From a virus, in IMG/VR virus record IMGVR_UViG_3300045521_000059: a DNA stretch of 64,000 bases. One strand, given 5' to 3'. Both the position numbers and the translations under genes were made by a program. A model generated the notes under the pieces. The model searched no databases. It was not told where the DNA came from and saw nothing but the letters and a program-made list of their open reading frames with translations. Below are positions 10,582 to 39,861 of this stretch, piece by piece. The first letter of the stretch is position 1. Each line of letters starts with the position of its first letter.

Positions 10582-10593
10582 AATTCTTCGTTC

Positions 10594-10636
10594 ACGGGCC
10601 GAGCAGCGCCACTTAAGGCAGCAGGTCTCGGCCCGT
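10594..10636. other. GC-rich hairpin inside array 1
   Basis: 10-bp stem ACGGGCCGAG/CTCGGCCCGT with an interrupted inner helix. Confidence 0.5.
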
Positions 10637-10647
10637 TAGTTTAAATT

Positions 10648-10737
10648 TGGTGGGGAGTGGACGGATTTTTACCGTAGCCACTAGGGGACAGGTGTACGGC
10701 CTGCCAGGGTTGTCATACCCTTCTTAACGCACTCCCC
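10648..10737 (-). tRNA. atypical tRNA-Tyr(GTA)-like RNA
   Basis: 8-bp acceptor GGGGAGTG/CACTCCCC plus A-CCA; loop CCGTACA (C33); T-loop TAAAAAT; non-canonical D arm. Confidence 0.6.
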
Positions 10738-10745
10738 GTGCGAAA

Positions 10746-10837
10746 TGGTGGGGGACGGCTAGATTTGAACTGCTTGCCGCATAGGGACTCGGGTTACAAC
10801 CGAGTGACAGAACCGCCCATCCTTATTGGCGTCCCCC
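10746..10837 (-). tRNA. atypical tRNA-Tyr(GTA)-like RNA
   Basis: Acceptor GGGGGACG/CGTCCCCC plus A-CCA; CTCGG-TTGTAAC-CCGAG; irregular T stem and D arm. Confidence 0.7.
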
Positions 10838-10842
10838 GAAAA

Positions 10843-11063
10843 TGGTGGAGATGACCGGGTTCGAACCGGCGATTGTCTTCGGACCTGAGCATTACCACAG
10901 GCTACCTCAATGCTTGAGAAACGCGCTTCCCTACTCGGCCCTCTCTGGCTATTTCGGTGCATCCACAACTCGTGTGCTTGAGATATTTCGAAGACCGGGT
11001 TTTACCCCGGTCGCGTTCTACGTTTTTTGCAACTGCCCACACCGAATCCAGGCGAGCATCCCC
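10843..11063 (-). ncRNA. 221-nt one-piece mini-tmRNA-like RNA
   Basis: GGGGATG/CATCTCC with G3.U70, A73 and CCA; tmRNA-type D-loop CTGGATTCG; T-arm GCCGG-TTCGAAC-CCGGT; helix-2-like pairing; no canonical tag ORF. Confidence 0.65.
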
Positions 11064-11079
11064 AATTAGTATTAAAAGA

Positions 11080-11347: not shown

Positions 11348-11430
11348 TGGTGCGGCAGGAGAGACTCGAACTCTCACGGTTTCCCAATGGATTTTGAATC
11401 CACCGCGTCTACCTATTCCGCCACTGCCAC
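11348..11430 (-). tRNA. tRNA-Leu(CAA)
   Basis: GTGGA-TTCAAAA-TCCAT; CCA. Confidence 0.95.
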
Positions 11431-11437
11431 ATTTAAT

Positions 11438-11521
11438 TGGTGAAGGGTGTTGGATTCGAACCAACGCGGATTTCTCAACGGATTTACAGTCCGTCCCGTT
11501 CGGCCTCTCGGGCAACCCTCC
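11438..11521 (-). tRNA. tRNA-Tyr(GTA)
   Basis: ACGGA-CTGTAAA-TCCGT; canonical cloverleaf; CCA. Confidence 0.95.
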
Positions 11522-11603
11522 AATTCTTCGCAAACTAGCTCACCAAAGAATATCGCGGTGACGGCCACAACATCCAAAGCCAGCTTGCACTGTTCTTGCT
11601 CAC

Positions 11604-11634
11604 AATTTCAAAGATCATTCTGTTATAAACAGAA
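11604..11634 (-). promoter_or_regulatory. boxB/boxA-like antitermination signal
   Basis: Hairpin TTCTGTT-TAT-AACAGAA followed by TGATCTTTGAAATT, similar to rrn boxA. Confidence 0.45.
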
Positions 11635-11661
11635 CCCTCTAACGAGGAAATACAGACGCAC

Positions 11662-11708
11662 AAAAGAAGAAACCCTCGGTAGCTTGTGGCCAGCGAGGGT
11701 TTCTTCTT
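11662..11708 (-). terminator. attenuator terminator upstream of array 1
   Basis: AAGAAGAAACCCTCG...CGAGGGTTTCTTCTTTT. Confidence 0.88.
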
Positions 11709-11727
11709 GGTTGGATTGAAGGATTAC

Positions 11728-11895
11728 TTAATTTGCGTATCCTTCAGTCGCCAATACAGCCCGCTGACCACATCCCAAATACGGGAGTGGTAACAAATGT
11801 GGGAGATGAGGTAGTGCCGACAAGGCACGAGACAGGGCGACGCGAGCAGAAACTGCCGCAACCTTTCCCTGTACTGTATGTGCCGATGTTGTCAT
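11728..11895 (-). CDS. leader peptide 1 (55 aa; Leu/Pro/His/Tyr run)
   Basis: GAGGA RBS; codons 28-40 = LPHLPHLLPLPYL; lies between promoter and terminator. Confidence 0.8.
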   Translation of the reverse strand: MTTSAHTVQGKVAAVSARVALSRALSALPHLPHLLPLPYLGCGQRAVLATEGYAN

Positions 11896-11939
11896 TTCAC
11901 TATCCTCAAATTGGCGACGTGAATTCGTCGTGTTATCCA

Positions 11940-11968
11940 TAAATGCATTAGGTCGAAGAAACTGTCAA
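11940..11968 (-). promoter_or_regulatory. sigma70-type promoter for array 1
   Basis: TTGACA (11968-11963)-N17-CATTTA. Confidence 0.65.
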
Positions 11969-12106
11969 TACGATTTTTCACTTTTTTATTATTATTTTTA
12001 AAAATAAAATCACGTAACAAAAAAGCCTTTCCCTCATTCGGCAATAAAAGTGTTGGTTTCGAGCATATAACGCCACTATCATTAGACAAAATATTGGAGT
12101 TTTTCG

Positions 12107-13042
12107 ATGGCAATAGATTTACCAACAGCCGCCTTCGCTTTTATTACAGCATTGGAAAGTGTATCAGGTGTTCAGATTGCCATTCTCGAACGTCGTGACG
12201 ATCCAGCAGAATTCTGGGCTAGAACCGCCGCAATTTTATGTGAAAAAACAAAACAAAATTGGTGCAGTGAACATGTTCGCTTTATGACGTCTAACACTGA
12301 ATTAATGGGTATGTCGCATATTATCGAATATGATTTCGACGGAAAAGGAACGCGACGCGTATGCGCGCTGCTGCCTCCCATCTCAAATATAGATCCAAAT
12401 TTCATTGCAGATTCTTATGGCTCCCCATTGCCGACTATTTATGACTTGCCGTCGAGCGCCGAAACTGCAAGCTGGCTTCTTCTATATCATGCTGCTCATT
12501 GTCTTGACACTGCATTATCAGATCAGGAAGAGAATAGAGCTGTAGCATTTGCTACTCTTGGACTTTCACTCATGGGCGGTGATTACAAATTCCTGCCAGG
12601 TCGCGTGCGCTCGTCTTCCAGACAAATAGCCTCAATGACAGGAAAGGCATCCGCATATTGGGCCGCTGGCACCGGAGAGCGCATTCTAATGGACCTTTGG
12701 AAAGAAGAAACATCAGACAGACTGAGAAGAGAATATGGATGCTATCCAATCATAAAGCAGAATAGCTCAATCGATATAGAGCGAATACAACGTGATGCAC
12801 GCATACCTGACGGACAGAATTGTTCGATGGGCGCTGGTGGTAATGGTGGCGGACGAACCAATCCTCAAGGTTCGATTACCGATGCCAATCTCTGGTTGTG
12901 GCTCTACGGCCCTCAAAATGGAGGGGACTCGTCTCCTAAGCTCGGTGTCCCTCCTAAGGATTACACAGCCTTCAAAACGTTCTCCAATTTTAATACTGCG
13001 GCGTCCTATGTGCTGGATACCGCAAATAAGTTAGCGCAGTGA
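12107..13042 (+). CDS. hypothetical protein (311 aa)
   Basis: Long ORF with GGAG RBS. Confidence 0.7.
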   Translation: MAIDLPTAAFAFITALESVSGVQIAILERRDDPAEFWARTAAILCEKTKQNWCSEHVRFMTSNTELMGMSHIIEYDFDGKGTRRVCALLPPISNIDPNFIADSYGSPLPTIYDLPSSAETASWLLLYHAAHCLDTALSDQEENRAVAFATLGLSLMGGDYKFLPGRVRSSSRQIASMTGKASAYWAAGTGERILMDLWKEETSDRLRREYGCYPIIKQNSSIDIERIQRDARIPDGQNCSMGAGGNGGGRTNPQGSITDANLWLWLYGPQNGGDSSPKLGVPPKDYTAFKTFSNFNTAASYVLDTANKLAQ

Positions 13043-13366
13043 AGGCTTAGGAGATAGCCGAAGGTCATTGGCGCGCTGTTTAAGGTCATCGTGCCAAGCA
13101 CGCGCCTGCTTATCACCATATGGAGAGTAGCAACCGGACCCCCAGTCAGAATGCACATAAGTGAATTCAAGGTCTTCTTCTAATGCCAAGGCAGCCTGGT
13201 TCATCAAAGACGCATCAGGTCCAGTAAATCTATCTTCTGGATCATCGTGTTCAGGGTCGTAATTTGGTGAAATGTTTGCGTGCTTTTCAATGAAATCTTT
13301 AATTTCGGCAGCAAGTTTAGATCTTCCAGTCGTCATTTTTATAAAACTCTCTTTCTGTGGTCGCAT
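13031..13366 (-). CDS. hypothetical protein (111 aa)
   Basis: ORF; no motif recognised. Confidence 0.55.
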   Translation of the reverse strand: MRPQKESFIKMTTGRSKLAAEIKDFIEKHANISPNYDPEHDDPEDRFTGPDASLMNQAALALEEDLEFTYVHSDWGSGCYSPYGDKQARAWHDDLKQRANDLRLSPKPSLR

Positions 13367-13456
13367 TCGAACTGACCAAATCGAACCAACTAATGCTGAT
13401 TGATTGTTTCATTACTATTCCATATTTTGAAGCATGAAAACTACGAGTTTGAGCTT

Positions 13457-14272
13457 ATGACTAAAAGAACCGAAGAAGACGGCCGTTTATTCCCATCCAT
13501 TAAGTGGGATCACGGATGGTCATTATCGATCCAGGCCGACAAGTACGGATATCAATGTAGCCCAAAACGAAAACTGGATACATTGGAGGATTACGAAACC
13601 GTCGAGGTAAAAATAGACGGGCCGCATGGCACTTACGTTGATCCACACACAATGCAGCTATTACCACATGTATTGGATAAGTTCCCAAAACTTACAAGTG
13701 ACAGCGGACCTTCCATCGGCGGAAATCTCACTTGGGACGATGTTGATGTCGTCAAACAAGCAATCTTGCTGGCCTCCCTCAGCCCGAATGACGGAGTTCC
13801 TTCAGGAGCAATTGGATGGTCGTGTAGGGAAGTTTATCACGGGACATCGAATGAAAATGCGGAAGACATCCTGAATTACGGTATCAAACCATCTATTGGA
13901 ACAGGCTATTTTGGACGCGCATTTTATGTGGCTGACGATGTGGAACTGGCAATCTCAAACTATGCGGAATTTTCAGATGACGAAAATGGTGGAGCCGTTA
14001 TCGTCACCACAATCAAAGAAGGGGCCTTGATACTCGACTTGAGAAATCATAAGGACAATCAAAAATGGATAGAAAGCGGGCTAGTGTCTATCATCGGTAG
14101 AGACGATTTCGATCTGCAGGCCCGAAAGAGAGGAATCGATGGCGTTTATGATCGATCAGTCGGAGGATTAGCCATTTTTAATGCAGCAATTCTAACGAAA
14201 CCACATCTCATAAATAATACTGCATCCAGCGATGTTGAGATCGACGCCAACAGTCCGGAAATAAAAATGTAA
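13457..14272 (+). CDS. two-domain protein with C-terminal PARP-like ADP-ribosyltransferase motif
   Basis: VYHGTS...ILNYGI...GTGYFGRAFYVADD (H-Y ART signature). Confidence 0.6.
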   Translation: MTKRTEEDGRLFPSIKWDHGWSLSIQADKYGYQCSPKRKLDTLEDYETVEVKIDGPHGTYVDPHTMQLLPHVLDKFPKLTSDSGPSIGGNLTWDDVDVVKQAILLASLSPNDGVPSGAIGWSCREVYHGTSNENAEDILNYGIKPSIGTGYFGRAFYVADDVELAISNYAEFSDDENGGAVIVTTIKEGALILDLRNHKDNQKWIESGLVSIIGRDDFDLQARKRGIDGVYDRSVGGLAIFNAAILTKPHLINNTASSDVEIDANSPEIKM

Positions 14273-14290
14273 AAAATATAAAAATACCCG

Positions 14291-14319
14291 TTGACATTGG
14301 TAAATACATACTTCATCTT
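14291..14319 (+). promoter_or_regulatory. sigma70-type promoter for array 2
   Basis: TTGACA-N17-CATCTT. Confidence 0.65.
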
Positions 14320-14343
14320 AAATGAAGATCACGGAGATTAAAA

Positions 14344-14436
14344 ATGTTTATTCAGTCATCCCAACAGCAATCAAGACAATCGAGTTCATCAAGCTCGAAT
14401 GCGTTGATGTGCGCGGTGACTGACCTAAATATCTGA
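14344..14436 (+). CDS. leader peptide 2 (30 aa; Ser/Gln run) MFIQSSQQQSRQSSSSSSNALMCAVTDLNI
   Basis: GGAG RBS; 14 of codons 4-18 are Ser or Gln; not in the ORF track. Confidence 0.82.
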   Translation: MFIQSSQQQSRQSSSSSSNALMCAVTDLNI

Positions 14437-14463
14437 CCTCCATATCAGATCAAAAGGTTTCAG

Positions 14464-14488
14464 AACCCGCCTAAAAGGCGGGTTTTTT
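14464..14488 (+). terminator. attenuator terminator upstream of array 2
   Basis: AACCCGCC-TAAAA-GGCGGGTT-TTTT, ending 6 nt before the first tRNA. Confidence 0.9.
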
Positions 14489-14494
14489 ATGTGT

Positions 14495-14586
14495 GGAAAC
14501 ATGGCTGAGAGGCTTAAAGCAGCGGTTTGCTAAACCGTCAGGGAGGTAAAATGCCCTCGGGAGTTCGAATCTCCCTGTTTCCGCCA
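14495..14586 (+). tRNA. tRNA-Ser(GCT)
   Basis: GCGGT-TTGCTAA-ACCGT; long variable arm; G73-CCA. Confidence 0.95.
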
Positions 14587-14628
14587 CGAATTCGAATTTC
14601 CTATCCGTAGGGAGTTCAAAAATAATAC

Positions 14629-14718
14629 GGAAAGGTGGCCGAGTGGTTGATGGCTCTGGTCTTGAAAACCAGCGTGCGGGAAACCGTACCGTGGGTTCGA
14701 ATCCCACCCTTTCCGCCA
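14629..14718 (+). tRNA. tRNA-Ser(TGA)
   Basis: CTGGT-CTTGAAA-ACCAG; CCA. Confidence 0.95.
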
Positions 14719-14753
14719 ATATATTGAGTTTGTTTATTTATGGGAGATGGGCC

Positions 14754-14957
14754 ATGACAGTACATGAATTAAATGCTCCGGCTGATGTCGTAGAAGCAAC
14801 TGTCATGGCCCTAGTAAAAACCCATAATAACAAGGCTCAGCAAGCAAAAGAACGATCTGCCTTACGCGGATGGTTCGTCGGTCAGACGATGAAGAAGCTT
14901 AACGGTGCAGTAAGTCGTCACGTAGTGCAAGAAGCAGTATTTAAAGCGCTGCAATAA
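14754..14957 (+). CDS. stand-alone GatB C-terminal/YqeY-like domain (67 aa)
   Basis: LRGWFVGQTMKKLNG matches the GatB tail motif GFFVGQVMK; GGGAG RBS. Confidence 0.65.
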   Translation: MTVHELNAPADVVEATVMALVKTHNNKAQQAKERSALRGWFVGQTMKKLNGAVSRHVVQEAVFKALQ

Positions 14958-14992
14958 TTATAGGAGATAATGGCTATAATAGCCAAATAATT

Positions 14993-15082
14993 GGAAAGAT
15001 GGCAGAGCCAGGTTGAATGCACTCGCCTCGAAAGCGAGCAAGCCGAAAGGCTTCGAGAGTTCAAATCTCTCTCTTTCCGCCA
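14993..15082 (+). tRNA. tRNA-Ser(CGA)
   Basis: CTCGC-CTCGAAA-GCGAG; CCA. Confidence 0.95.
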
Positions 15083-15088
15083 GAATAC

Positions 15089-15162
15089 TGGGGATTAGTT
15101 TAAAGGTAGAACAGCGGACTCTGAATCCGTTAGTCTTGGTTCGAATCCAGGATGCCCAGCCA
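15089..15162 (+). tRNA. tRNA-Gln(CTG)
   Basis: GCGGA-CTCTGAA-TCCGT; U1-A72; CCA. Confidence 0.93.
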
Positions 15163-15179
15163 GAATTTAAAAAATATAC

Positions 15180-15254
15180 TGGGACGTCGCCAAGCGGTAA
15201 GGCATCGGTTTTTGGTACCGACATTCGGAGGTTCGAATCCTCCCGTCCCAGCCA
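15180..15254 (+). tRNA. tRNA-Gln(TTG)
   Basis: TCGGT-TTTTGGT-ACCGA; CCA. Confidence 0.95.
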
Positions 15255-15280
15255 TGTTTTAAAAAAAATGCAATGAATAC

Positions 15281-15368
15281 GGAACCGTGGCAGAGTGGTC
15301 TAATGCACTCGCTTGGAAAGCGAGCAGGCCGAAAGGTCTCAGAAGTTCGAATCTTCTCGGTTCCGCCA
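15281..15368 (+). tRNA. tRNA-Ser(GGA)
   Basis: CTCGC-TTGGAAA-GCGAG; CCA. Confidence 0.95.
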
Positions 15369-15393
15369 GAAATAAACATAGAGGACCAACCAA

Positions 15394-15633
15394 ATGAGCA
15401 ATATGCCAATCAATATCAAAGAACACATTACTGCAGGCCCGTGCAAATTAGTTTGCGCGCGAGCAGATAATCTTTGGTATAAAACTGCTCTTGGCTTTGA
15501 ATTCCCTGTGCCGTTTTCTGATATGGGCGACGCCACGTTTGAGGCAGAAGAAAAAGGCATGATGCTTATGCGCTATATTAGAAAACACAACGAATTAATC
15601 ACAGCTGCGCGACAACAACAAAACGTCGCATAA
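15394..15633 (+). CDS. small phage-type hypothetical protein inside array 2, ending QQQNVA
   Basis: GAGGA RBS; LWYKT..GFEFPVP.SD.GDATF...MRYIRKH pattern recalled from phage proteins. Confidence 0.7.
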   Translation: MSNMPINIKEHITAGPCKLVCARADNLWYKTALGFEFPVPFSDMGDATFEAEEKGMMLMRYIRKHNELITAARQQQNVA

Positions 15634-15636
15634 GCA

Positions 15637-15660
15637 GTTGTCTAATCACCATTAGACGAC
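15637..15660 (+). other. hairpin whose 3' arm is complementary to the D arm of the next tRNA
   Basis: GTTGTCTAAT-CACC-ATTAGACGAC; 15649-15660 is the exact reverse complement of 15675-15686. Confidence 0.7.
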
Positions 15661-15668
15661 TAAAACCT

Positions 15669-15743
15669 TGCCGGGTCGTCTAATGGTAGGACATGAGCCT
15701 TTGAAGTTACATAATGCGCGTTCGAGTCGCGCCCCGGCATCCA
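15669..15743 (+). tRNA. tRNA-Gln(TTG)-like, bulged anticodon stem, U73
   Basis: TGCCGGG/CCCGGCA; loop CTTTGAA; T-arm GCGCG-TTCGAGT-CGCGC; CCA. Confidence 0.8.
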
Positions 15744-15780
15744 CTTTCAGGTTTAGAGTTTCGAAATCCGATCATCACTG

Positions 15781-16821
15781 TCATCTCCTGCCCTCATCGA
15801 CAACACCAAGTGACATCCTTTCAAAGAAATTAGTCGTCATATCCTGGAATGCCTGTTTCTCGTAATCACCATATGCGAGCAGAAAAGCAGTCGAGAATGC
15901 CTTTAAGACTTCGAATAATTTTTTCTCAGTAGGATTGGATCTGGCGACCTGTCCAGAAAATGAATTAGCACTACCGTTTTTGAGCAACCCAATATGCTTA
16001 TATCCAGGTTTGGATAATTTGTAGGATTTCGCCTTCTCGGTATAAGGCTGCCCTGTAAAATCATCCTCCCGCTCTGCTAACAAATAGAGCAAGGGTGCAT
16101 TTATATCTGCCCAGGAATTTTCATCTAAACCCATAACTCCTGGACCCTGCGGTGACATCAGTATGCCCGCAAAAAAACGAGGTTCAGTAAAAGTACGGCG
16201 CTTATTATCACCATCTCTCACGGAAGCACCAAGCAACATCTGGGCTACATAAGCACCGTAGCCGTGACCCACAATAATAGGACGTTCAACATTAACAGTT
16301 TGACCGATAGCATCTTCGACAAGTTTTACGTCATCAAGAACACTAACACACGCTTCTGCTCTCTCTTGCCATGCAACAGGATCTTCCAGCAATGCTGAGA
16401 TGTTCCATTCAGAATAGCTGTTTACCGACGTTTTCCTCAATGACGGACCATTTTCAATAATTGAATCACGATGAAGCGGGGCGACAACGACAAAACCATG
16501 GCTAGCCCAGTGCCAAAGAAGATCACGGTAAGCAAGCGGCTCAGCCACAGCCCCATGACTAAAAACAATCAAACGGGGATTTGGATGGTTACGTGGAAAG
16601 AAGACCATGTAATCAAATCCACGACCTTTCACCGTCGTTGGTGAAGCCGAAAAAACGAATGGACCTTGAGTTGCATACCTGGCATATCTCGGGTCGACAC
16701 CTGGAATATGCTCTCTAATAATCAAAGGTGAGTTTTCAGCATCTTGCGCAAGTGAGGTCGAAGTTAGTAAGCATGCAGCAGCGCCAATTAAAAAGGAACG
16801 TCTGTATTTATTGCACATCAA
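15781..16821 (-). CDS. Tat-exported alpha/beta-hydrolase-fold protein with Gly at the nucleophile position
   Basis: RRSFL Tat signal; VFSHG oxyanion motif; WASHGFVVVAPLH; GHGYGA in place of GHSxG. Confidence 0.75.
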   Translation of the reverse strand: MMCNKYRRSFLIGAAACLLTSTSLAQDAENSPLIIREHIPGVDPRYARYATQGPFVFSASPTTVKGRGFDYMVFFPRNHPNPRLIVFSHGAVAEPLAYRDLLWHWASHGFVVVAPLHRDSIIENGPSLRKTSVNSYSEWNISALLEDPVAWQERAEACVSVLDDVKLVEDAIGQTVNVERPIIVGHGYGAYVAQMLLGASVRDGDNKRRTFTEPRFFAGILMSPQGPGVMGLDENSWADINAPLLYLLAEREDDFTGQPYTEKAKSYKLSKPGYKHIGLLKNGSANSFSGQVARSNPTEKKLFEVLKAFSTAFLLAYGDYEKQAFQDMTTNFFERMSLGVVDEGRR

Positions 16822-27163: not shown

Positions 27164-29503
27164 ATGAAGCTTGACAGCCCGGTAATTGATTGTGACTTAA
27201 GGGCTATGGAGAACGGAATGGAAATCAGCCGCGTCACGACGCCAAAAGAATTTTTCATAAAAGAACGTGACTCGTTCTACTCACTCTGGACGCTCTCGTT
27301 CTGGAGGGAGTTCTTCCAAAACTCGGTCGACGCTGGCTCAAAAAACATCGGCATTGATTTAAGTTCGGAAAGCGGTAGGGGCGAATTTGATAAGATTGGA
27401 GATGCAACCAAACAGATAACCCGCGTTGTATTTACTGATGACGGATGCGGAATGTCTGAGGACGTCCTCAACAGAGTCTATTTTGCCATTGGGCAAACGA
27501 CCAAGAATGATGGGTCCAGCGTCGGCGGCTATGGTCGCGCAAGATTAATGACTTGTTTCTCTCAAGACAGATATTCGATCCTGACAAAAGATCGCTTCGT
27601 AATGGGTAATGGCCCTGACTATGTCAACTACAGCCTTGATGAAGCGGAAACAGAACTGATCAAGGCTCTCGAAGGTTTGTCCGAACCATTCGGAGACGTT
27701 CAAAGCCAAATTAACTACGAAGTAAGTCGTGGTGGACTTTTTCGTGATTTACAAATGGTACAAGAAGCGAAAGCTCTTGGAGGTTTCAATGGTTGTCGTG
27801 TCGAAGTGGATCTGGATCAATCAACAGGCGGATACAGGAACAGACCCACTATCGAGACAATGAATGAGCGTCTCAAAACTTACCTATCAGAAAGCCAGAT
27901 CAAGCCGACCGTCACTATCAACGGAACAACTCCCGAAGAGTATTATGAATCTGAAAGCAAAATTCAGGCTAGAAGAGGTCAGGTAAAACGGACACTCGTT
28001 GCCGAAGTGGACGGCCAAATGACTGAGTTCGCTACTGTACATATCAGCGATAGCGACAAGGCTAGCCATAAGGGTAAAGCGATCATACGTGTTGATGGCG
28101 CTTCAATGTATACCATATCGCTCAATCCAGCCGTACAGGTCATCATAGAGATAGACCGAAAGTTGTCGAGACTAGCACTTACCTCAAACCGAGACGGTAT
28201 GAAGGAAGGGTTCAATGAAGCGGTCAATACATTCATTTCAGAACTGAACATCGATAACACCTCAGCGTTGGCCGACAAAGCAAGCAAAGACAATTATAAA
28301 ATCGAGGGCGACAAAGGTATGCTCGTCGCGTCTGTGCCAAGTCTGTCAAAACTCACTTCTGAAGATATTACGTTTGAGGAAGAAAATGTGGCTGTAGAGA
28401 TTTCTACGCGCGTAAAGACGACTGCTGTTCACACTCTTGAAGACCTAAAACAAAGAGGTGTCTCTCAGGATGCCATTGAAGAATTGGTCAAAAAGACAAA
28501 ATGGGGTGAGAGCATCATTTCTAAAATGCGCTGGTCATACGATTTCCCGCTAAAGAATGATGTTGAACAGTTCATAGAGACTGTTGAAAAGAGAATGTAT
28601 GAAGGCGAAACGAATTCTGAATTGTTTCTGAAGTATGCCTCACCCCCTCTGAAAGAGTGGATCATTCAAACACTTGGAAACCGTGCTGAGATTGCTCTTG
28701 AGCAGGCCAGGATGGAGAACGAGAAGCGATTAAAGGACATGAACGATGTTTATGTCAGCGTCGTTTCAACTAATGAGAAAACACGTGCTGCCATACGCAG
28801 GAATGACCCAAGAAAATGGGACACTGCGACGGGAAAAGGTAGAGTGCCTCGCGCACTCCTCTCAGCATGGACTGCGGCATGTTCGGTTGCTGTTGAGACA
28901 TTGATGACGACACGACCTTCTACAGATAGCTTTAGTTGGACAACTGGTTGGATATATTCAGTTCCAGAGGAACAGTATCAAGGTGACCGATACAGGTCAG
29001 TGTCGATTGAAGCTATGTGTTCGTTGAAGGACAATGAATACAAGTTTCTTCTCAATCCTATCAAGGAAGACGGTGTTCTTCGCTATTCGGTGACTGACGC
29101 CAAAGATCGTCAACACATGCAGGCTCTTGCCATGCATGAGGTTGCTCACGTTCTGGAAAGTCATCACAACGAATCCTATGCAGGCATTTTGACCGATCTG
29201 ATGATCAACTACGACTTCAGCGAAGCAAACAAGCGCATGAAAGAGTCTGTAAAGGCCGTTCTTTCAGCCTATGAAAGTGGAAGGTCTATTGTCCAAAAAA
29301 TGGATCATGAACCGGGGCCGCGCCCAGCCGAACGCTTAATGTCTCTCGCTACGGCGAATGACCCTGAGGCTGCAGCCGATGCGATCACACGTAATAGCGA
29401 CGGCACGTACGAGGTCGACACCGAGCGTCTGCAAGATCACGTCGAAGGATACAACTATGACGCCGATGACGCGAACGAAGCACAGTTCGGATGTGGGAGA
29501 TAA
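27164..29503 (+). CDS. GHKL (Hsp90/MutL-like) ATPase with C-terminal HExxH zincin motif
   Basis: REFFQNSVDA, DDGCGM, TTK...GGYG; late MHEVAH...HHNESY. Confidence 0.75.
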   Translation: MKLDSPVIDCDLRAMENGMEISRVTTPKEFFIKERDSFYSLWTLSFWREFFQNSVDAGSKNIGIDLSSESGRGEFDKIGDATKQITRVVFTDDGCGMSEDVLNRVYFAIGQTTKNDGSSVGGYGRARLMTCFSQDRYSILTKDRFVMGNGPDYVNYSLDEAETELIKALEGLSEPFGDVQSQINYEVSRGGLFRDLQMVQEAKALGGFNGCRVEVDLDQSTGGYRNRPTIETMNERLKTYLSESQIKPTVTINGTTPEEYYESESKIQARRGQVKRTLVAEVDGQMTEFATVHISDSDKASHKGKAIIRVDGASMYTISLNPAVQVIIEIDRKLSRLALTSNRDGMKEGFNEAVNTFISELNIDNTSALADKASKDNYKIEGDKGMLVASVPSLSKLTSEDITFEEENVAVEISTRVKTTAVHTLEDLKQRGVSQDAIEELVKKTKWGESIISKMRWSYDFPLKNDVEQFIETVEKRMYEGETNSELFLKYASPPLKEWIIQTLGNRAEIALEQARMENEKRLKDMNDVYVSVVSTNEKTRAAIRRNDPRKWDTATGKGRVPRALLSAWTAACSVAVETLMTTRPSTDSFSWTTGWIYSVPEEQYQGDRYRSVSIEAMCSLKDNEYKFLLNPIKEDGVLRYSVTDAKDRQHMQALAMHEVAHVLESHHNESYAGILTDLMINYDFSEANKRMKESVKAVLSAYESGRSIVQKMDHEPGPRPAERLMSLATANDPEAAADAITRNSDGTYEVDTERLQDHVEGYNYDADDANEAQFGCGR

Positions 29504-30150
29504 ACATGTCCAATATCCCTTCATTCGAAGAACTAATTACCGAAGAATGGTTCAACAAAGGTATGGAAAACGGTAGCTTCGATCCTGAGCATGGTTCGGA
29601 TATTGGGGAGCTTATAGAGTATATTCAGGATGGTGCGACTTGGTTGCCAACCTGTCCCGACCACCTGAAAAATGTTGATGTGACAGAAGCTGCCAAAAAT
29701 CCAGAAATGCGTGCGGTAATTTGGAAATGGCTTGAACAAAGATATTCCGAAGTTATCGACAATCTACCGAAAGGCGAGCAGCTAAAACTATATCGCATCA
29801 TGCGCGTGGACGATGATTGGATAGACGACCTGAAAACAGGAGAAGTCACCACGGGTATTTACTTTAGTGATGATCCATACGTGGACGGTGGATTCTGGCT
29901 TGACGAGAAAAAGCCTAACGAAATTCGTTTGGAAGCCACAGTGAATCGAAATGACGTAGATTGGAAAGGGACCATTCTTGCAAGAATGGATTTCGGGACA
30001 GGCGATAATGAAGCCGAAATTCGCATGAAAACAGACGTACCAGTGATGGTTATTTCATTCTCCGACGACGACGATACTCATGAAATACGTAAGTTACTTT
30101 CAACGGGACAACATTGGGTAAAAGGTGAAACACCCACGCTCACTATGTGA
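29491..30150 (+). CDS. hypothetical protein (219 aa)
   Basis: ORF; acidic. Confidence 0.65.
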   Translation: MWEINMSNIPSFEELITEEWFNKGMENGSFDPEHGSDIGELIEYIQDGATWLPTCPDHLKNVDVTEAAKNPEMRAVIWKWLEQRYSEVIDNLPKGEQLKLYRIMRVDDDWIDDLKTGEVTTGIYFSDDPYVDGGFWLDEKKPNEIRLEATVNRNDVDWKGTILARMDFGTGDNEAEIRMKTDVPVMVISFSDDDDTHEIRKLLSTGQHWVKGETPTLTM

Positions 30151-30171
30151 AAAACAATTTAAGGAAGAAAG

Positions 30172-30531
30172 ATGCCTAAGTTATACTTATCTGATGATAG
30201 TCCTGAACTTCATGAAGGCGAGGACATCTCACGTACTCACATGTATGTCTGCGCAAACTACGTGGAGTCCGACAACGATCTCGACGGACGATCATTTTCT
30301 TATGCTGATGCTGTAACGAACAAAGGCAACAGATTGTCACGGGTTGAGTTCTCAACAGAACCCAAAGGCACAGGTTTCTGGGTCATGCAGCACATGCGGG
30401 CCGAAGACGCCGCGAATTTCCCCGTGGGCAAGGAAGTGACACTGCACTTGCGTAAAGGCGACAGAGGATTCCCAGAATATTTCGCAATTACAGATGGATT
30501 TTATGAAGAAGTACCGAGTTTGAAGCTGTAG
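30172..30531 (+). CDS. hypothetical protein (119 aa)
   Basis: ORF with AGGA RBS. Confidence 0.6.
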   Translation: MPKLYLSDDSPELHEGEDISRTHMYVCANYVESDNDLDGRSFSYADAVTNKGNRLSRVEFSTEPKGTGFWVMQHMRAEDAANFPVGKEVTLHLRKGDRGFPEYFAITDGFYEEVPSLKL

Positions 30532-30565
30532 ATATATAAATAAGAACAAAATATCAACATAACAA

Positions 30566-30826
30566 TCACGTCGCCTTCTTAACCCATTCCAATCCAATCC
30601 TCTTCGCGCAATCGGAGCCTACTGGTAGTGTTCCGTAGTCTTCGGCATAACCTGCAGGGACGAGGGCCTCATCTTCAGGGTGCACGAAATTGCAACCATC
30701 TACGACCCTGGCATAGAACTTAGGCGCACCTTTAATGTCTTTCTGACAGACGCAACAAAAAACGCTAGTTTTTGGGGAGCGTCGATAGTCCGGGTCAATA
30801 AAAATCGTTCGGAATGGATTTTTCAT
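30566..30826 (-). CDS. small Cys-containing (possible Zn-binding) protein (86 aa)
   Basis: CCVCQK...GSDCAK; ATG at 30826. Confidence 0.55.
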   Translation of the reverse strand: MKNPFRTIFIDPDYRRSPKTSVFCCVCQKDIKGAPKFYARVVDGCNFVHPEDEALVPAGYAEDYGTLPVGSDCAKRIGLEWVKKAT

Positions 30827-30926
30827 GCGCAGGAGGTAGCAGATTATATCTATAAATGTCAATAATTTATGGTTGACGTTAGATAATAAAAACCTGAATC
30901 TGTTTAAATAGGAGAAGGTAATAATC

Positions 30927-31490
30927 ATGTCAGATACTAATTTAAAGCCGGAGTTATCTGCAGTTTTTGAACAAATTTCTGCGATTTTTGAACAGATTAG
31001 GGTGTCGGGTGTGCAGGACCGCGCAGAGATGGCTTCGATCATAATGGAAAACCCATATATTGTATCGTCAATTGATGACCTTCGAAACAATCGCTTCGAG
31101 AAATTTCACAAAGCAATCGTAATGAAATCCGACGACATCCTTGAAGGCATCGTCGAGCATGTTTTCGGAGACAATTATGAAATTGCATTCCTGATTAAGC
31201 AGTACGACTTCTTGTATCAACACTTGGAAAAGCTTTTCACGAAATTTGAGGGCCATGCGAGTTGCGTCGACAAAACTCGCACAGTTCTCGCGTACCTTTT
31301 ATTAAATAAGGCCAAGGGAACAAGGATTGAGTTCGACTACGATGGAGAATGGACTTACCATCTTCCTAAGAAAATCCTGACTTCGCACGAAGAAGTCATC
31401 AAATTCTTCGATGCGATGATCAATCTGTATTACGGCAGTCATGAAAAATATCTGGCATTGCTTTTGGAGGTTTCGGGGCAATCAAAATAA
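30927..31490 (+). CDS. hypothetical protein (187 aa)
   Basis: GGAG RBS; TTGACG upstream. Confidence 0.7.
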   Translation: MSDTNLKPELSAVFEQISAIFEQIRVSGVQDRAEMASIIMENPYIVSSIDDLRNNRFEKFHKAIVMKSDDILEGIVEHVFGDNYEIAFLIKQYDFLYQHLEKLFTKFEGHASCVDKTRTVLAYLLLNKAKGTRIEFDYDGEWTYHLPKKILTSHEEVIKFFDAMINLYYGSHEKYLALLLEVSGQSK

Positions 31491-31563
31491 TCCGCATGCA
31501 ACTATCATGTGGCGACTTGCATCCATCACATCAATGCTAAAGCAACAATAGCGGAATATCGAA

Positions 31564-32139
31564 ATGAAAACCCAGCTTGTTTATCGTGATACAGGACATG
31601 TTCAGAACGGATTCAAAACCGTTATTACCGTTGGGTTTGCAGAGTTCCCATCGGATGTCGAGTTGCCAGATGAAAAGATTGTGATCTCAATAACAGGTTT
31701 TGAGAAGAATTCAGCAAATCCTGAGGTGATTGCGCCTGCCTCGCGGCCGATGGAAGTCGTTGACCTTTGGGGGCGAAAAGATGACTTCAGATCAAATGGG
31801 ATTGCGAATCTAGTAACGCAACCGATCTGGAAGTCGCCTGCGACGCGTGGATCACTACAACAATATTTCCGTCGCACTAATGTTGAACCTTCGCAACCAG
31901 GTCTAGCCGTGATGGCCTTCACTGGATTGACCGCATTTGCTCCTGACGATGAAATCGATGAAGACAATGTCTTCCAATTCCAATCCAACGGATTGGTTCA
32001 GGTCATCGAAGGGCGCATTGGAATCGAAGTGAAACCAGAATGGGGAACGGCTGGATTTAGGGACCATATGCGCGGAACGCAACTAGTGCATTGTTCCGCC
32101 GATGCACTTGGGGGTTTGGTGATGAACCTGTCGGCCTAA
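31564..32139 (+). CDS. hypothetical protein (191 aa)
   Basis: ORF. Confidence 0.6.
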   Translation: MKTQLVYRDTGHVQNGFKTVITVGFAEFPSDVELPDEKIVISITGFEKNSANPEVIAPASRPMEVVDLWGRKDDFRSNGIANLVTQPIWKSPATRGSLQQYFRRTNVEPSQPGLAVMAFTGLTAFAPDDEIDEDNVFQFQSNGLVQVIEGRIGIEVKPEWGTAGFRDHMRGTQLVHCSADALGGLVMNLSA

Positions 32140-32438
32140 TGTCGGAGATGGCGCTCGACATCAATGAAAAGATGGATCGCTTCCGTGATTTCAAACTCGC
32201 CGACTCGATTTCGGCTTACGATCAGGCCGAATATGAAAAGCTTGAACGGGAACTGCAGCGTCTCGGCCTGGTATCCCAATATCAAAATGAAGAGTTTGTG
32301 GAATACCTGAAGAAGCGTGCTGAACGCGGATTAGTGTTCCCATCCACACATCCGGTTACCCGTAGCCAATCACAGCAAGCCGACAACGCCTCTAGAGAGA
32401 TTCTGCAAGAGATAACGTCGAGCGTCTTTAGGCCTTGA
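32139..32438 (+). CDS. hypothetical protein (99 aa)
   Basis: ATG overlaps the previous stop codon. Confidence 0.55.
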   Translation: MSEMALDINEKMDRFRDFKLADSISAYDQAEYEKLERELQRLGLVSQYQNEEFVEYLKKRAERGLVFPSTHPVTRSQSQQADNASREILQEITSSVFRP

Positions 32439-32808
32439 TAGGCGAGGGCTGGTGCTCGATTTGGAACGACGGCATTCGAATCCCTGCGGCTTCAAAGAGA
32501 TAATCCTCTTCATCGAGACCTGCATAGCTCAGATTCACTCTGGCCTCATCTACATTTGACCCGATGGCGCTCAATTCAGGCTTCCCTGTCTCCTTCAAAA
32601 AGGGAAGGGAGACGGGGAACAGGTCAGAAGGAATATCACGTCCGATGATGAGTTCGGCTTCAACACAATCAATATAATCTAACTCATCATGCCGGATGCT
32701 TTCAAAACAACCATCAATAAACGGCTTTATAGCCTCGTCCTCTGTGGAGCCGATGGCATTGAGGTAGACATCGCCAGTACGACGATCAAAAGGCACAAAA
32801 ATTTTCAT
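32428..32808 (-). CDS. hypothetical protein (126 aa)
   Basis: AGGAGGAGA RBS; downstream of the recombinase. Confidence 0.65.
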   Translation of the reverse strand: MKIFVPFDRRTGDVYLNAIGSTEDEAIKPFIDGCFESIRHDELDYIDCVEAELIIGRDIPSDLFPVSLPFLKETGKPELSAIGSNVDEARVNLSYAGLDEEDYLFEAAGIRMPSFQIEHQPSPIKA

Positions 32809-32826
32809 CTCTCCTCCTATCGCTAG

Positions 32827-33888
32827 TTATCCCGCAAGCGAAGCCGTCTCATTATGAAGTGCAGCACCTGACTGGTGATAACCAGCGGCAACCTGAACCG
32901 TTTTGTGTCGTGACAATGCCATTGCCTCTAGCAGACTTTTTCCTTGCAAACCAACTTCAGTCAAGAAGCCTGATCGCAGACTATGGCCAGCGTAAATTTC
33001 TGGATTGAGATCGGCAGCCTTAATGCGAGATTTCACGATCAAAGCGACTGCGCGATCCGATAATGGTTTCTTTGAAACGTAGCCATAACGGCTAACGGAA
33101 CGAAAAATCGGCCCTTTGGTAATGTTGCCCGCCTTTAACCAAGCACGAAGAGCTACAGCAGCTCGACCCGTAATCGGCACGGTGCCGCCATCGCCTTCCT
33201 GCTCCGTCTTAGTAATCCCCAGATGATAGATGTAGGAGTCGCCGACCTCTTCAAGGTTGAGCATCTCCGCTCCGACGATCTCGGAACGACGGCGGCCACC
33301 ACTTGACCACCCAAAGAGCAACAACGCGGCGTCTCGCAAATCCAGTATACTTCCTGGTTCACAGGTCTCCAGCATGAGATCAAGCGTCTTCTTGATGACA
33401 GCCTTCTTCTTGTTTGGCCGTTCGCCGCGCCGAGCTGCTGCCTTGCGTGCTTTAGAAAGAACTTGAGACACAATCGGGTCCATGATCGGACTGGGCAAAC
33501 CCTTTGTCTTGTGAAGCGCAGATAAAGCGGAAACACGACGATCAATCGTATTCATGGCATGCTTACCTGGCTTCGTCTTGACACCTCGATCAATCATATC
33601 TTGATCGACATCTTCATCAAGACCTTCAAGGTGATCTACGACAAAACGTGCGACGACCTCAGGAGGAACAGGATAGACAGGTTCATCTGTCCAACCGATG
33701 GCGGAACACCATGACCAAAAATAGCGAAGATCAGATTCATAAGCACGACGCGTATTAGGTGGAGTACCGTCATCAATGACGCGGCGAAGACGTTCTCGGG
33801 TTCCATGATCCAACACAAAACCCAACGAACGCGCTTGTTCAGGTTGCGTCGTCGTAATTTCTTTTCGTGTAGAACCATAATTGGGCAT
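32827..33888 (-). CDS. tyrosine recombinase/integrase (Cre-like plasmid type)
   Basis: RDAALLLFGWSSGGRRRSEI, TKT, GHSLRSGF, SRHKT...Y catalytic residues. Confidence 0.92.
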   Translation of the reverse strand: MPNYGSTRKEITTTQPEQARSLGFVLDHGTRERLRRVIDDGTPPNTRRAYESDLRYFWSWCSAIGWTDEPVYPVPPEVVARFVVDHLEGLDEDVDQDMIDRGVKTKPGKHAMNTIDRRVSALSALHKTKGLPSPIMDPIVSQVLSKARKAAARRGERPNKKKAVIKKTLDLMLETCEPGSILDLRDAALLLFGWSSGGRRRSEIVGAEMLNLEEVGDSYIYHLGITKTEQEGDGGTVPITGRAAVALRAWLKAGNITKGPIFRSVSRYGYVSKKPLSDRAVALIVKSRIKAADLNPEIYAGHSLRSGFLTEVGLQGKSLLEAMALSRHKTVQVAAGYHQSGAALHNETASLAG

Positions 33889-34024
33889 ACGAGGATGTCC
33901 GAATAAATATTTGTGCGAACATTATAAATTCAAAACAAGCAAGCGCCAAAACGCCGAAAAGTATTTTCAGATTGTTACATGCAATATAGTGCTGAATAAT
34001 GAAATAAAGGCGAGGAATGCAAAC

Positions 34025-34462
34025 ATGTCCCCAGATGAATTCAGCAATCTGAAAATTGCAGAACAGAACACTTCGAACAGATTTCACGATGGTGGCCCAA
34101 AGTTCGTTGAAGCCATCGATAATGGTTCCAAGACTTTGCTCTATGGATATAATTCAGATAGAAACACGCACCACGTTTACCAAGATGACAATCAAATTCA
34201 TTTAGTAGTTTATAATCATCAAAATGAGGTAATAAAACAGCTCAGCGACGTTTCACTTCCTGTGACTTCAATTATGCCTGATAAACGTCTTTACGCTGAA
34301 GCATGCGATTTCAAGTTCTGTATGGAATTGCAGGAAGCAGGAGTATTACTACCGTTCACGAACTACAATTACAGTTCTTACCAGAAGCACGAAGGCAAGG
34401 AATTTATTGGTAGGACGCTCGAAGATTTAGGAATTGACATTCCTAAGCAGATGAATATCTGA
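34025..34462 (+). CDS. hypothetical protein
   Basis: GAGGA RBS and ATG at 34025; KRLYAEACDF...PFT pattern. Confidence 0.65.
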   Translation: MSPDEFSNLKIAEQNTSNRFHDGGPKFVEAIDNGSKTLLYGYNSDRNTHHVYQDDNQIHLVVYNHQNEVIKQLSDVSLPVTSIMPDKRLYAEACDFKFCMELQEAGVLLPFTNYNYSSYQKHEGKEFIGRTLEDLGIDIPKQMNI

Positions 34463-34516
34463 TCAAAATCAATGAAGTTCGGTATCTAAATCAGCAACAA
34501 AAAAGAGGATATTGCC

Positions 34517-35128
34517 ATGAAATTTAACATTTTCGACGACTGCGAGAATACCGAACTTCCAGAAAATCTAGATGGCAAGTTCAAGGTGTGGGATGGTTCC
34601 GGCCGCTTTCACAACTACGCACTCCTTCATCCGAATGTCGGAATAGGTGAAGCCTTTGCGTTAATGGCGACTTCCGAGAATTACCGTGACAACGAGGACG
34701 TCATTCGTTTCATCGACACGGCTTTGAAGCAGGGAGATGCCGTTGCCACGGGATATTACAGTGGAACGCTCCTCCAAGTCACAGATGGTGACGCTCCCCA
34801 AACGACGCGTACTGCAGGCACGAGATCTGTCGATATGGACCTAACATGGACAGGTAGCCACCTAGACGGTGATTTCGCCAACGAGGTCGAGAGAGTTGTC
34901 TGCGAAAATCAAATAGCCATAGCACCATTCCAGGGCGCAATGACGATATTCAGCGGGAACAAACGCTTCATGGCTTTGGACCACATCAAAGTCGAAGAAA
35001 AGGTCGACACCATTCAATACGTCATCGACCACATCGACACTTCGTCTGAACTTCAGGCATTCCTAGGCGAGAAAGTATCTCTCCGCCTCAGAGAGACAAT
35101 CACCGCAGATAATAGCCTGAGGCCATAA
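34517..35128 (+). CDS. hypothetical protein (203 aa)
   Basis: GAGGA RBS. Confidence 0.65.
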   Translation: MKFNIFDDCENTELPENLDGKFKVWDGSGRFHNYALLHPNVGIGEAFALMATSENYRDNEDVIRFIDTALKQGDAVATGYYSGTLLQVTDGDAPQTTRTAGTRSVDMDLTWTGSHLDGDFANEVERVVCENQIAIAPFQGAMTIFSGNKRFMALDHIKVEEKVDTIQYVIDHIDTSSELQAFLGEKVSLRLRETITADNSLRP

Positions 35129-35186
35129 CATCCAGAAGTCATATTTCCCATCAGAACCGATTAAAATGGGCCGCACGGCCCATTTT

Positions 35187-35492
35187 TTATTCAGAAGTAA
35201 TCTGATCTTCTGCAACTTTAAGCAGATTTTCCATCTGAGCACGCACATCGTCCTCTGTGACACCGAGATCGGCAACGACCTTACGAAGAACGCCTGCTCC
35301 GCCAGGAGCTTCAATGTCAGCCGCAACCACTTCACTAGCATACGCGGCAGCGGCTTCACCTGACTTACCCAACCTATCAGATGCCCACAGCCCCAACAAC
35401 TTGTTACGGCGTGCCGTGATACGGAAACGCAGACTCTCATCGTGGGCAAATTTATTCTCAAAAGAATTACGTCGTTCGTCCAAACTGCTCAT
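35187..35492 (-). CDS. DUF1476 protein (alphaproteobacterial F1-ATPase inhibitor zeta subunit homolog)
   Basis: LDERRNSFENKFAHDESLRFRITARRNKLLGLWA family signature. Confidence 0.88.
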   Translation of the reverse strand: MSSLDERRNSFENKFAHDESLRFRITARRNKLLGLWASDRLGKSGEAAAAYASEVVAADIEAPGGAGVLRKVVADLGVTEDDVRAQMENLLKVAEDQITSE

Positions 35493-36041
35493 TAGTTCCT
35501 CATTGTTAATTTGACGTCGTGCAAACTGAAATTCGCATGCACATTTAAATGATAATTCGCTCGCTCAGCGGTGGCAACCATTTCATTCATGCAAAATGGT
35601 TGACAAATTAATACCCTGCCTGCGCCAACATTAATTTAATGAATTTAAATACACTTAAGTTCACAACTCTGTCATGCAAATCATGAAACGAGAGGTCGAA
35701 TCGAGCGCTGCTTCACTGAGATTTAACTGCATTTCTAGGCGGAAAACCATATTTATCATAATGACTTACCAACTTCCGATAAGGAAGGTTATCGGAAGTC
35801 AGGAATAAGGTGTCTTATATTAAGGTTCGATGACCAAGCAGCATGTGCTTCATTATTTACGTTGCCTATAACATAAATCCATAAGAGAGAGTTGTAGTTA
35901 ATCCATTTTAAATTCATCATAAGGAGGTTGGACAACTTAATTATGTTTACAAAGATATGGGTCATGTAGCAAACCAACGCATTAATTGGAATTAATAAAA
36001 AAGAACAAGTTTCAAGCGGCACACTAGACGAGGCCGCGTGT

Positions 36042-37016
36042 TTGAATAACAATTCCAAGATGGATGAAACAGAAAAAGAAATGACAACAATTGATGAACG
36101 TCTGGCTTTTATAGAAGCAGCGATGGCGATAACACGCCTTGATGAAGCTCGAAGCCATTTATCTACTAAATCGGCGATCTACTCCCCTGGTGCAAGACGC
36201 CGAGAAGCAATGGGTATTGCATCCGTTGACGGGGCCGTTGCCAGAATGGAATCTATGTGCCGCGTAATCAGTGATCCCGAAGCAACGAATATCGAAAGGG
36301 GGTCACGTGTCACTGCTGACGCTTACTCAGCTTTGCAGCTTGTTGAAAATTGGACAAACGACGGACCAACTACATCAGATATAATTGAACTCTTCATGAC
36401 TTCAGACCTCTCAACAGGAAGACTGATGAGACCGGACATAAAGTGGAGCATTGAAGAAGACTCTATGTGGGTCGTTGAACAATTTAATCTCCTTACAGAA
36501 AATCTGGACGCATGGACAGCTATCGAGACAATAAGAATTATATGGACTTCAGGACGCTTCCTTGGAACGTCAAGAAAAATGGCTCTTTTGCTCGCGCCGT
36601 GGATAATGGCGAAAGGCTTTAAATGTAACTGGCCTACATATGGATTTGCTGATGCTGTAAAATCAAATCTCGATAACTTTCGTGATGCATCTCAGTTTAG
36701 TGACCAGTGGGTTGTTGAAGTGGCGGACGTAATGAGAACAGGATTCACAAAAGAACGACAAAAACTCAAAGACGTATATGCAGAACGAACAGCCTTGTTA
36801 GCTCTGTGTCCACCTACAAGAACGTCATCAAGCATTGAGGCGGCTGTCGAATATATATTTGAATTCCCGATATTCACTGCAAAGCTATTTGCAGAACGCC
36901 TCGATATCACACCTCGTGGAGCAAAGATCGTATTAGATAGGCTCCTAGAGACTAATGTCATTGAAGTCGATAATGGCGCAAGAAATAGGAAATTCACATG
37001 TCGCAGACTCCTGTAA
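36042..37016 (+). CDS. Fic-like/DUF1612-type protein with C-terminal HTH
   Basis: Degenerate Fic-like segment GRFLGTSRK; C-terminal FTAKLFAERLDITPRGAKIVLDRL HTH. Confidence 0.55.
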   Translation: MNNNSKMDETEKEMTTIDERLAFIEAAMAITRLDEARSHLSTKSAIYSPGARRREAMGIASVDGAVARMESMCRVISDPEATNIERGSRVTADAYSALQLVENWTNDGPTTSDIIELFMTSDLSTGRLMRPDIKWSIEEDSMWVVEQFNLLTENLDAWTAIETIRIIWTSGRFLGTSRKMALLLAPWIMAKGFKCNWPTYGFADAVKSNLDNFRDASQFSDQWVVEVADVMRTGFTKERQKLKDVYAERTALLALCPPTRTSSSIEAAVEYIFEFPIFTAKLFAERLDITPRGAKIVLDRLLETNVIEVDNGARNRKFTCRRLL

Positions 37017-39852: not shown

Positions 39853-39861
39853 GGGGGATAA

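Follow-up and report, generated by a model that had tools for sequence, protein, structure and literature searches.

A question raised by this locus is why a short open reading frame (ORF) built almost entirely of serine and glutamine codons, and followed by an intrinsic terminator, should lie directly in front of an operon of serine and glutamine tRNA genes. An earlier note on the 64-kb stretch of DNA analysed here (hereafter the window) had proposed that the region is an attenuator. Our analysis supports that reading, and we consider it probable that a ribosome-mediated (leader-peptide) transcription attenuator, codon-matched to the tRNAs that it controls, gates the Ser/Gln tRNA operon. This is an inference from sequence; function itself has not been shown, and neither transcript ends nor read-through have been observed. 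The tRNAs would then probably be made only when ribosomes slow at Ser or Gln codons. The parts of the leader (14291-14488) and of the operon behind it are as follows.

14291-14296, plus strand: -35 hexamer TTGACA, found by direct reading, with an A/T-rich stretch on its 5' side
14314-14319, plus strand: candidate -10 hexamer CATCTT, 17 nt past the -35 hexamer, also by direct reading
14333-14336, plus strand: Shine-Dalgarno sequence GGAG, 7 nt 5' of the ATG
14344-14436, plus strand: leader ORF of 30 codons, beginning with an ATG at 14344 and ending with a TGA stop codon (14434-14436); its translation is inferred
14352-14360, plus strand: region 1 (TCAGTCATC), taken from the minimum-energy fold of the whole leader and from inverted repeat I2; its partner is region 2
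14353-14397, plus strand: regulatory run of 15 codons (codons 4-18 of the leader ORF), 14 of the 15 for Ser or Gln
14380-14398, plus strand: 7-bp hairpin within the Ser run (TCGAGTT, loop CATCA, AGCTCGA), with arms at 14380-14386 and 14392-14398
14413-14426, plus strand: region 2, GCGG-TGA-CTGA-CCT, the 5' strand of the antiterminator
14431-14450, plus strand: inner hairpin ATCTGA/TCAGAT, with the stop codon within its 5' arm
14455-14470, plus strand: region 3, AGG-TT-TCAG-AAC-CCGC, the 3' strand of the antiterminator, overlapping the 5' arm of the terminator
14462-14488, plus strand: intrinsic terminator with an 11-pair stem (14462-14486; six G-C pairs), a 3-nt loop and a run of six U to 14488 (-16.5 kcal/mol)
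14495-15743, plus strand: operon under control, with seven Ser/Gln tRNA genes and two small ORFs
14754-14957, plus strand: 67-aa ORF resembling the GatB/YqeY tail (Pfam PF02637, E 1.6e-6)
15394-15633, plus strand: 79-aa ORF (phrog_20427)

Everything that an attenuator of this type requires at the sequence level is present at this locus and conserved in 15 distinct homologous leaders. A promoter and a ribosome binding site precede a short ORF that bears the regulatory codons, a terminator stands directly before the genes, and an antiterminator shares sequence with the 5' arm of that terminator. The stop codon, too, is so placed that a ribosome reaching it would occlude the antiterminator. The ORF described in the earlier note does encode 30 amino acids on the plus strand, and its codons 4 to 18 read exactly as listed there, with AGA as the sole codon for neither Ser nor Gln. 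The remaining codons of the run are TCA (four), TCG (two), TCC, AGT, AGC, CAA (three) and CAG (two), and this tally confirms that all six anticodons of the downstream array are sampled. The CATCTT -10 element is weak and went unscored in a generic sigma-70 scan; the start of the transcript near 14326 is inferred. With the U-run ending at 14488 and tRNA-Ser(GCU) placed at 14495 by ARAGORN and Rfam, the terminator does stop 6 nt short of the first tRNA gene, as had been claimed. A separate downstream promoter for the tRNAs, which would have counted against an attenuator, has no room in a gap of only 6 nt. The genes follow in the order tRNA-Ser(gct), tRNA-Ser(tga), the 67-aa ORF, tRNA-Ser(cga), tRNA-Gln(ctg), tRNA-Gln(ttg), tRNA-Ser(gga), the 79-aa ORF and tRNA-Gln(ttg), an order that is syntenic in relatives.

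These parts suggest a mechanism, every step of which is inferred and none measured. Host RNA polymerase would start near 14326, and a ribosome would load at the GGAG and ATG and translate the 30-codon leader. When Ser- and Gln-tRNAs are plentiful, the ribosome is expected to trail the polymerase as far as the stop codon at 14434, where it would cover region 2 and the inner helices and allow the terminator (14462-14488) to form, and transcription would end 6 nt ahead of the first tRNA. Slow decoding of any Ser or Gln codon between 14353 and 14397 would instead stall the ribosome with its leading edge a few bases before region 2 (14413-14426). Region 2 would then be free to pair with region 3 (14455-14470), sequestering the CCGC of the terminator 5' arm, and the polymerase could continue into the seven tRNA genes and the two small ORFs. 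Without a ribosome, region 1 (14352-14360) is predicted to hold region 2 as an anti-antiterminator, which would again lead to termination. Since more Ser/Gln tRNA would relieve the stall, the circuit would be a negative-feedback control on the supply of these tRNAs. Amino-acid starvation would also induce the array, and extra tRNA would be no help in that case; the physiological trigger is therefore unknown.

Could such a run of codons arise by chance? All stop-free stretches of 13 and of 15 codons in the six frames of the window (about 67,000-72,000 stretches) were scored for the number of residues belonging to the amino-acid set of each tRNA array. For Ser/Gln, the leader run is the six-frame maximum; chance is excluded because the run, at 14/15, tops every other stretch (the next best has 9). 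The maximum for Leu/Pro/His/Tyr (13/13, next 10) falls on the minus strand at 11814, immediately before the Tyr-Leu-Pro-His array of that strand, and that for Thr/Trp/Cys/Arg (12/15, next 10) falls at 50336, just upstream of the Trp-Thr-Cys-Arg array. Three separate global maxima thus each lie about 200 nt or less before the matching array and on the correct strand, and the match between a leader's codons and its own array recurs not only at the window's two other arrays but also in relatives.

The two other leaders have recognizable layouts of their own. At 11655-11968 on the minus strand, a 70-codon ORF contains 13 consecutive Leu/Pro/His/Tyr codons and is followed by a terminator before the Tyr-Leu-Pro-His array. 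At 50257-50475 on the plus strand, a 24-codon ORF (MRNTRTTWTCWRTYR...) and a terminator precede the Trp-Thr-Cys-Arg array. Both of these codon-matched leaders are conserved in relatives, and the Leu/Pro/His/Tyr leader persists in distant ones, in which the runs are varied and always cognate.

The window derives from ant metagenomes, and homologous leaders were collected by two routes. Homologs of the 79-aa ORF on long contigs led to syntenic Ser/Gln arrays and to divergent Leu/Pro/His/Tyr arrays. A DNA pattern made from the conserved core and the terminator found nine metagenome contigs and one genome, that of Mesorhizobium sp. SP-1A. An exact pattern search had no match among the contigs of the viral collection. 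The upstream PARP-like gene, used as a probe, revealed no relatives in the viral or genome collections, and megablast against phage and plasmid sequences returned tRNA-sized matches only. Once duplicates were removed, the set (alignment A1) comprised 15 distinct leaders with a mean column identity of 74%, drawn from metagenomes and a cultured Mesorhizobium isolate; their loci span 44-63% G+C.

An alignment of this kind had been named in the earlier note as a check on the attenuator, and the Ser/Gln codons are indeed retained in all 15 leaders: the densest 15-codon stretch of each contains 12-15 of them, and all six anticodon classes are sampled in 14 of the 15. Around the run, every leader has TTGAC at a constant distance from the ORF, GGAG before the start codon and an ORF of 29-31 codons, which begins MF.. 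in all but one. The promoters have only the -35 hexamer and the spacing in common, with CATATC, CATAAA, GATATA or CTACGG occupying the -10 position at the same spacing. Several Ser/Gln positions show synonymous swaps (TCA/TCC/TCT, TCG/TCA and CAA/CAG), and the AGA codon of the window is replaced by a Ser codon, AGC or AGT, in 10/15 leaders. As judged from the alignment, the constraint within the run is on codon identity. Beyond the run, the C-terminal third of the peptide is unconserved (CAVTDLNI, LRGGTKVI and RGDDIGS, for example). A GCGG core is kept there in 15/15 leaders, in the extended form GCGCGG in 14, and this motif occupies different reading frames in two subgroups. Because GCGCGG is kept across shifted frames while the peptide is not conserved, that part is constrained as RNA rather than as peptide. 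The terminator, AACCCGCC-loop-GGCGGGTTTTTT, is invariant in the 15 leaders and ends 6-11 nt before tRNA-Ser(GCU). The hairpin within the Ser run is 99% paired across the 15 sequences; one of its pairs varies between C-G, U-G and U-A, and in the two relatives where it is U-A a Ser codon is lost (AGC to AAC). It is possible that this hairpin serves as a polymerase pause hairpin, a role that is inferred.

Whether the leader RNA can act as a switch was addressed by folding. The whole leader folds at -56.8 kcal/mol (z = -5.9 relative to shuffled sequence), a fold that contains the terminator and a helix between 14352-14360 and region 2 (GGTGACTGA). The antiterminator drawn in the earlier note is the minimum-energy fold of 14395-14470 (-19.7 kcal/mol). 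The CATCAA/TTGATG repeat to which the same note assigned a hairpin is real, but the hairpin does not occur in the minimum-energy fold and shows no conservation. If the terminator is deprived of its 3' arm, the CCCGC of its 5' arm is taken up by GCGG(G) in 15/15 leaders; the nested stem that this pairing closes has inner helices of different sequence in the two subgroups. These antiterminators have predicted energies of -18 to -30 kcal/mol, compared with -15 to -16.5 kcal/mol for the terminators of the 15 leaders. The antiterminator segments are more stable than copies with dinucleotide-shuffled interiors (mean z = -2.4); for 10 of the 15, fewer than 5% of shuffles do as well.

A simple model, in which a ribosome footprint is masked on transcripts cut at the end of the terminator 5' arm, was then used to represent the position of the ribosome. 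For the window and its six closest relatives, region 2 captures CCCGC when the masked ribosome is placed anywhere in the Ser/Gln run and does not do so when the ribosome is absent or at the stop codon. For the window's subgroup, the masking model therefore reproduces trp-type three-state logic, within the limits of such a calculation. The spacing at the window's leader agrees with this picture: the final Ser codon reaches to 14397, region 2 begins at 14413 and the stop codon lies 21 nt past the start of region 2. In the distant subgroup, a simple mask does not separate the states with no ribosome and with a ribosome at the stop codon from the stalled state. For the full-length leader at equilibrium, the terminator is favoured in every masked state, which means that switching must depend on kinetics, as it does in trp. 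The portion of the antiterminator that truly excludes the terminator amounts to only 4-5 base pairs. Covariation does not help to decide the matter, as the single covarying pair among the 15 leaders (C-G in 7, U-G in 6, U-A in 2) was matched by 140/500 shuffles and is not significant; this is because hardly any variation exists in the helices concerned (terminator, Ser-run hairpin and GCGG/CCGC). Four metatranscriptome runs covering 11400-16000 gave contigs of even depth that are uninformative on RNA ends. Three of the contigs span the terminator and one breaks at 14473/14479, which is not evidence for or against termination.

An alternative explanation is that the leader is a real attenuator that reports any slowing of ribosomes, whether caused by antibiotics, ribosome damage or global starvation, and that its richness in Ser and Gln is secondary. 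The long tRNA array of Anabaena, which is induced by translation inhibitors and co-regulated with rtcB, offers a precedent (PMC8421152), and the window has an RtcB gene of its own at 54584-56029. Moreover, the masking model predicts that a stall anywhere in the leader ORF would free region 2. A general sensor of translation stress is nevertheless hard to reconcile with three leaders in one window, each matched in its amino acids to the array behind it and to neither of the other two, or with the persistence of this pairing in distant relatives, which a non-specific sensor would not need. In addition, control in Anabaena acts through promoter repeats, with no leader (PMC8421152). We regard general stress sensing as an unlikely account of the locus and favour a codon-specific attenuator.

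Two further explanations dispense with attenuation. The ORF could be an independent small gene, encoding a functional Ser/Gln-rich protein of 30 amino acids with a terminator of its own, and the tRNAs could arise from constitutive leak-through or from elsewhere. The good ribosome binding site and the conserved N-terminal half of the peptide fit this idea, and rhizobial leader peptides (peTrpL) reportedly have functions in trans. A small gene does not account for a terminator that sits only 6-11 nt from tRNA-Ser in 15/15 loci, a gap that leaves the tRNAs without a promoter of their own. Neither does it explain why the C-terminal third of the peptide is unconserved although RNA motifs within it are conserved in shifted frames, nor why the same design recurs with different amino acids before two other arrays; we judge it very improbable. 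The opposite proposal is that the ORF is fortuitous and that the Ser/Gln codons are a by-product of RNA hairpins in an untranslated 5' leader, namely the TCGAGYT/ARCTCGA stem and CAGCA repeats, the terminator being constitutive or controlled by a protein. The most conserved part of the run is in fact a hairpin, and in two relatives a Ser codon has become an Asn codon with the base pair kept. A fortuitous ORF would not, however, be expected to keep its start codon, GGAG, length and stop position across loci of 44-63% G+C, to show synonymous Ser/Gln changes outside the hairpin or to belong to a set of six-frame global maxima found at all three arrays. We find this last explanation barely credible, and the codon-matched attenuator remains the preferred reading.

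Leader-peptide attenuators are best known from trpL, hisL, leuL, thrL (Thr/Ile) and ilvL (Ile/Val/Leu) of enterobacteria and from pheST. The leader described here has in common with them a promoter, a short ORF with regulatory codons that is presumed to be translated (translation was not measured here) and a terminator just before the structural genes. The predicted antiterminator also shares the 5' arm of the terminator, an upstream strand would hold the antiterminator strand in the absence of a ribosome, and a ribosome finishing at the stop codon would block the antiterminator. Like the thr and ilv leaders, it would sense more than one amino acid. Unlike the classical systems, the genes under control are not those for biosynthetic enzymes or a synthetase; they are tRNA genes and two small ORFs. 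Since the controlled genes are tRNAs, the output would act on the sensed quantity, decoding capacity itself. At gathering thresholds, Rfam reports only tRNAs at the locus, with no leader family and no T-box. The best sub-threshold families are Trp_leader (22.4 bits), Leu_leader and Phe_leader, and the best scores are 22.4, 21.1 and 17.5 bits against cut-offs of 41, 50 and 55, respectively. T-box riboswitches bind uncharged tRNA directly, need no translation and control synthetase or amino-acid genes. The leader resembles them in coupling transcription antitermination to the state of a specific tRNA; unlike them, it has an ORF that is predicted to be translated, and a T-box covariance model had no match at the leader even at E-values up to 10. 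Searches of the full-text literature brought up no account of tRNA genes controlled by leader-peptide attenuation. The leader belongs to no curated leader family, and tRNA genes are new as the target.

The nearest published work concerns the trn operon of Anabaena sp. PCC 7120, an inducible long tRNA array that responds to translational stress and is co-regulated with rtcB (PMC8421152). Both systems involve supernumerary tRNA genes that have spread horizontally and that are silent, or predicted to be so, until impaired translation switches them on, and both have rtcB linked to them. In contrast to trn, the arrays described here are short, sorted by amino acid and each provided with a codon-matched leader. 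Control of trn has been assigned to direct repeats that cover the -10 box and the transcript start and form a putative repressor site, and no leader is described: the strings 'attenuat' and 'terminator' are absent from the text of the paper, and 'peptide' occurs once (PMC8421152).

Two other tRNA loci were considered in this connection. The idea that the E. coli tRNA-Phe genes pheV/pheU have an attenuator-like leader was rejected, because at both MG1655 loci the tRNA is immediately preceded by its promoter and a leader ORF is lacking. In the Xanthomonas jumbo phage XacN1 (positions 29300-49299), one case is suggestive: the peptide KPYYKRYYAK, with 7/10 cognate residues, occurs before a Lys-Lys-Tyr tRNA cluster; a count this high is reached in about 1 in 10,000 stretches of the region, and the other clusters there give weak signals.

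The Mesorhizobium isolate gives some indication of the element on which the leader resides. Of the 92 tRNA matches in Mesorhizobium sp. SP-1A, about 42 fall into seven arrays, all inside a 131-kb part of a 1.19-Mb contig (C2), so that the replicon is at least 1.19 Mb. The array tRNAs of C2 cover all 20 amino acids and are supernumerary, the host's own set being dispersed on other contigs. Contig C2 has about 50% G+C throughout, compared with 64% for the chromosome contig C1, and its GyrB and TrpRS are 94% and 93% identical, respectively, to those of the window. The element encodes its own GyrA/B, TrpRS, ribonucleotide reductase and RtcB, and a search of C2 found no SSU rRNA, rpoB, HK97 capsid or Terminase_6N. 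From its base composition and gene content, C2 is therefore a very large accessory replicon or insert that depends on the polymerase and ribosomes of its host. Under the best explanation, the attenuator belongs to a large accessory replicon in a host of Rhizobiales type.

Whether this element is plasmid-like or virus-like is open. The phrog_20427 ORF points to jumbo phages, with homologs in XacN1, RsoM2USA, CBB and GAP32, and C2 yielded neither the terminase and capsid families nor a homolog of the XacN1 sheath; phage identity is unresolved. Most of the large ORFs of the window have no PHROG match. In XacN1, homologs of the 67-aa and 79-aa ORFs lie about 400 bp apart, outside the tRNA genes. 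Relatives of the element are found on contigs of 250 kb to 1.43 Mb with 44 to 63% G+C.

The regulation of individual bacterial tRNA genes has been described as largely unknown (PMC8421152). On balance we lean towards the broader proposal that very large, low-G+C accessory replicons of Rhizobiales carry a tRNA set for all 20 amino acids in sorted arrays, that at least three of these arrays are independent demand-sensing circuits, each gated by a leader peptide of its own codons, and that these are the first tRNA genes found under ribosome-mediated attenuation. If this is true, leader-peptide attenuation, the oldest known RNA switch, has been re-used to set tRNA supply against the speed of codon decoding, with codon-specific sensing and an output that feeds back on the sensed quantity. 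The element might in this way replace tRNAs that are depleted or cleaved in the host. Such a leader would be a simple, portable part for homeostasis of tRNA levels, and it hints at an explanation for the sorting of tRNA genes by amino acid on mobile elements. Direct testing is possible, since the cultured Mesorhizobium sp. SP-1A carries the same leader on contig NZ_JAVXZD010000002.1.

Only three of the seven arrays on C2 have a leader and terminator; they are the three that are also in the window, and each encodes a peptide almost the same as its counterpart there. No leader plus terminator was found at the four other C2 arrays (Phe/Arg, Lys, Glu/Asp and a mixed array of 13 tRNAs). These leaderless arrays, located at about 935 kb, 1034 kb and 1055-1066 kb, share a conserved promoter-like box, TTTTTGTTGTTGAC, about 55 nt before the first tRNA, or about 230 nt in the case of the mixed array. 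Upstream of this box are small ORFs rich in Arg/Phe (MRRRRRKKARFRSKMFDF, at the Phe/Arg array) and in Glu/Asp (at the Glu/Asp array).

Two further observations concern the Leu/Pro/His/Tyr array. About 130 nt separate the terminator of its leader from tRNA-Tyr (11522-11650, minus strand), and this stretch holds a conserved, -35-like TCTTTGA(A/C)AT that occurs in the same place in the loci of three relatives. A second promoter past the attenuator is possible and would allow expression of this array independently of its leader; no comparable space exists behind the Ser/Gln leader. Within the same array, a gap of about 500 nt separates tRNA genes (10582-11079, minus strand). Neither ARAGORN nor Rfam at gathering thresholds reported anything in this gap, and at the corresponding position of the Mesorhizobium copy ARAGORN identifies a 77-nt tRNA-Ser(gga)-like gene.
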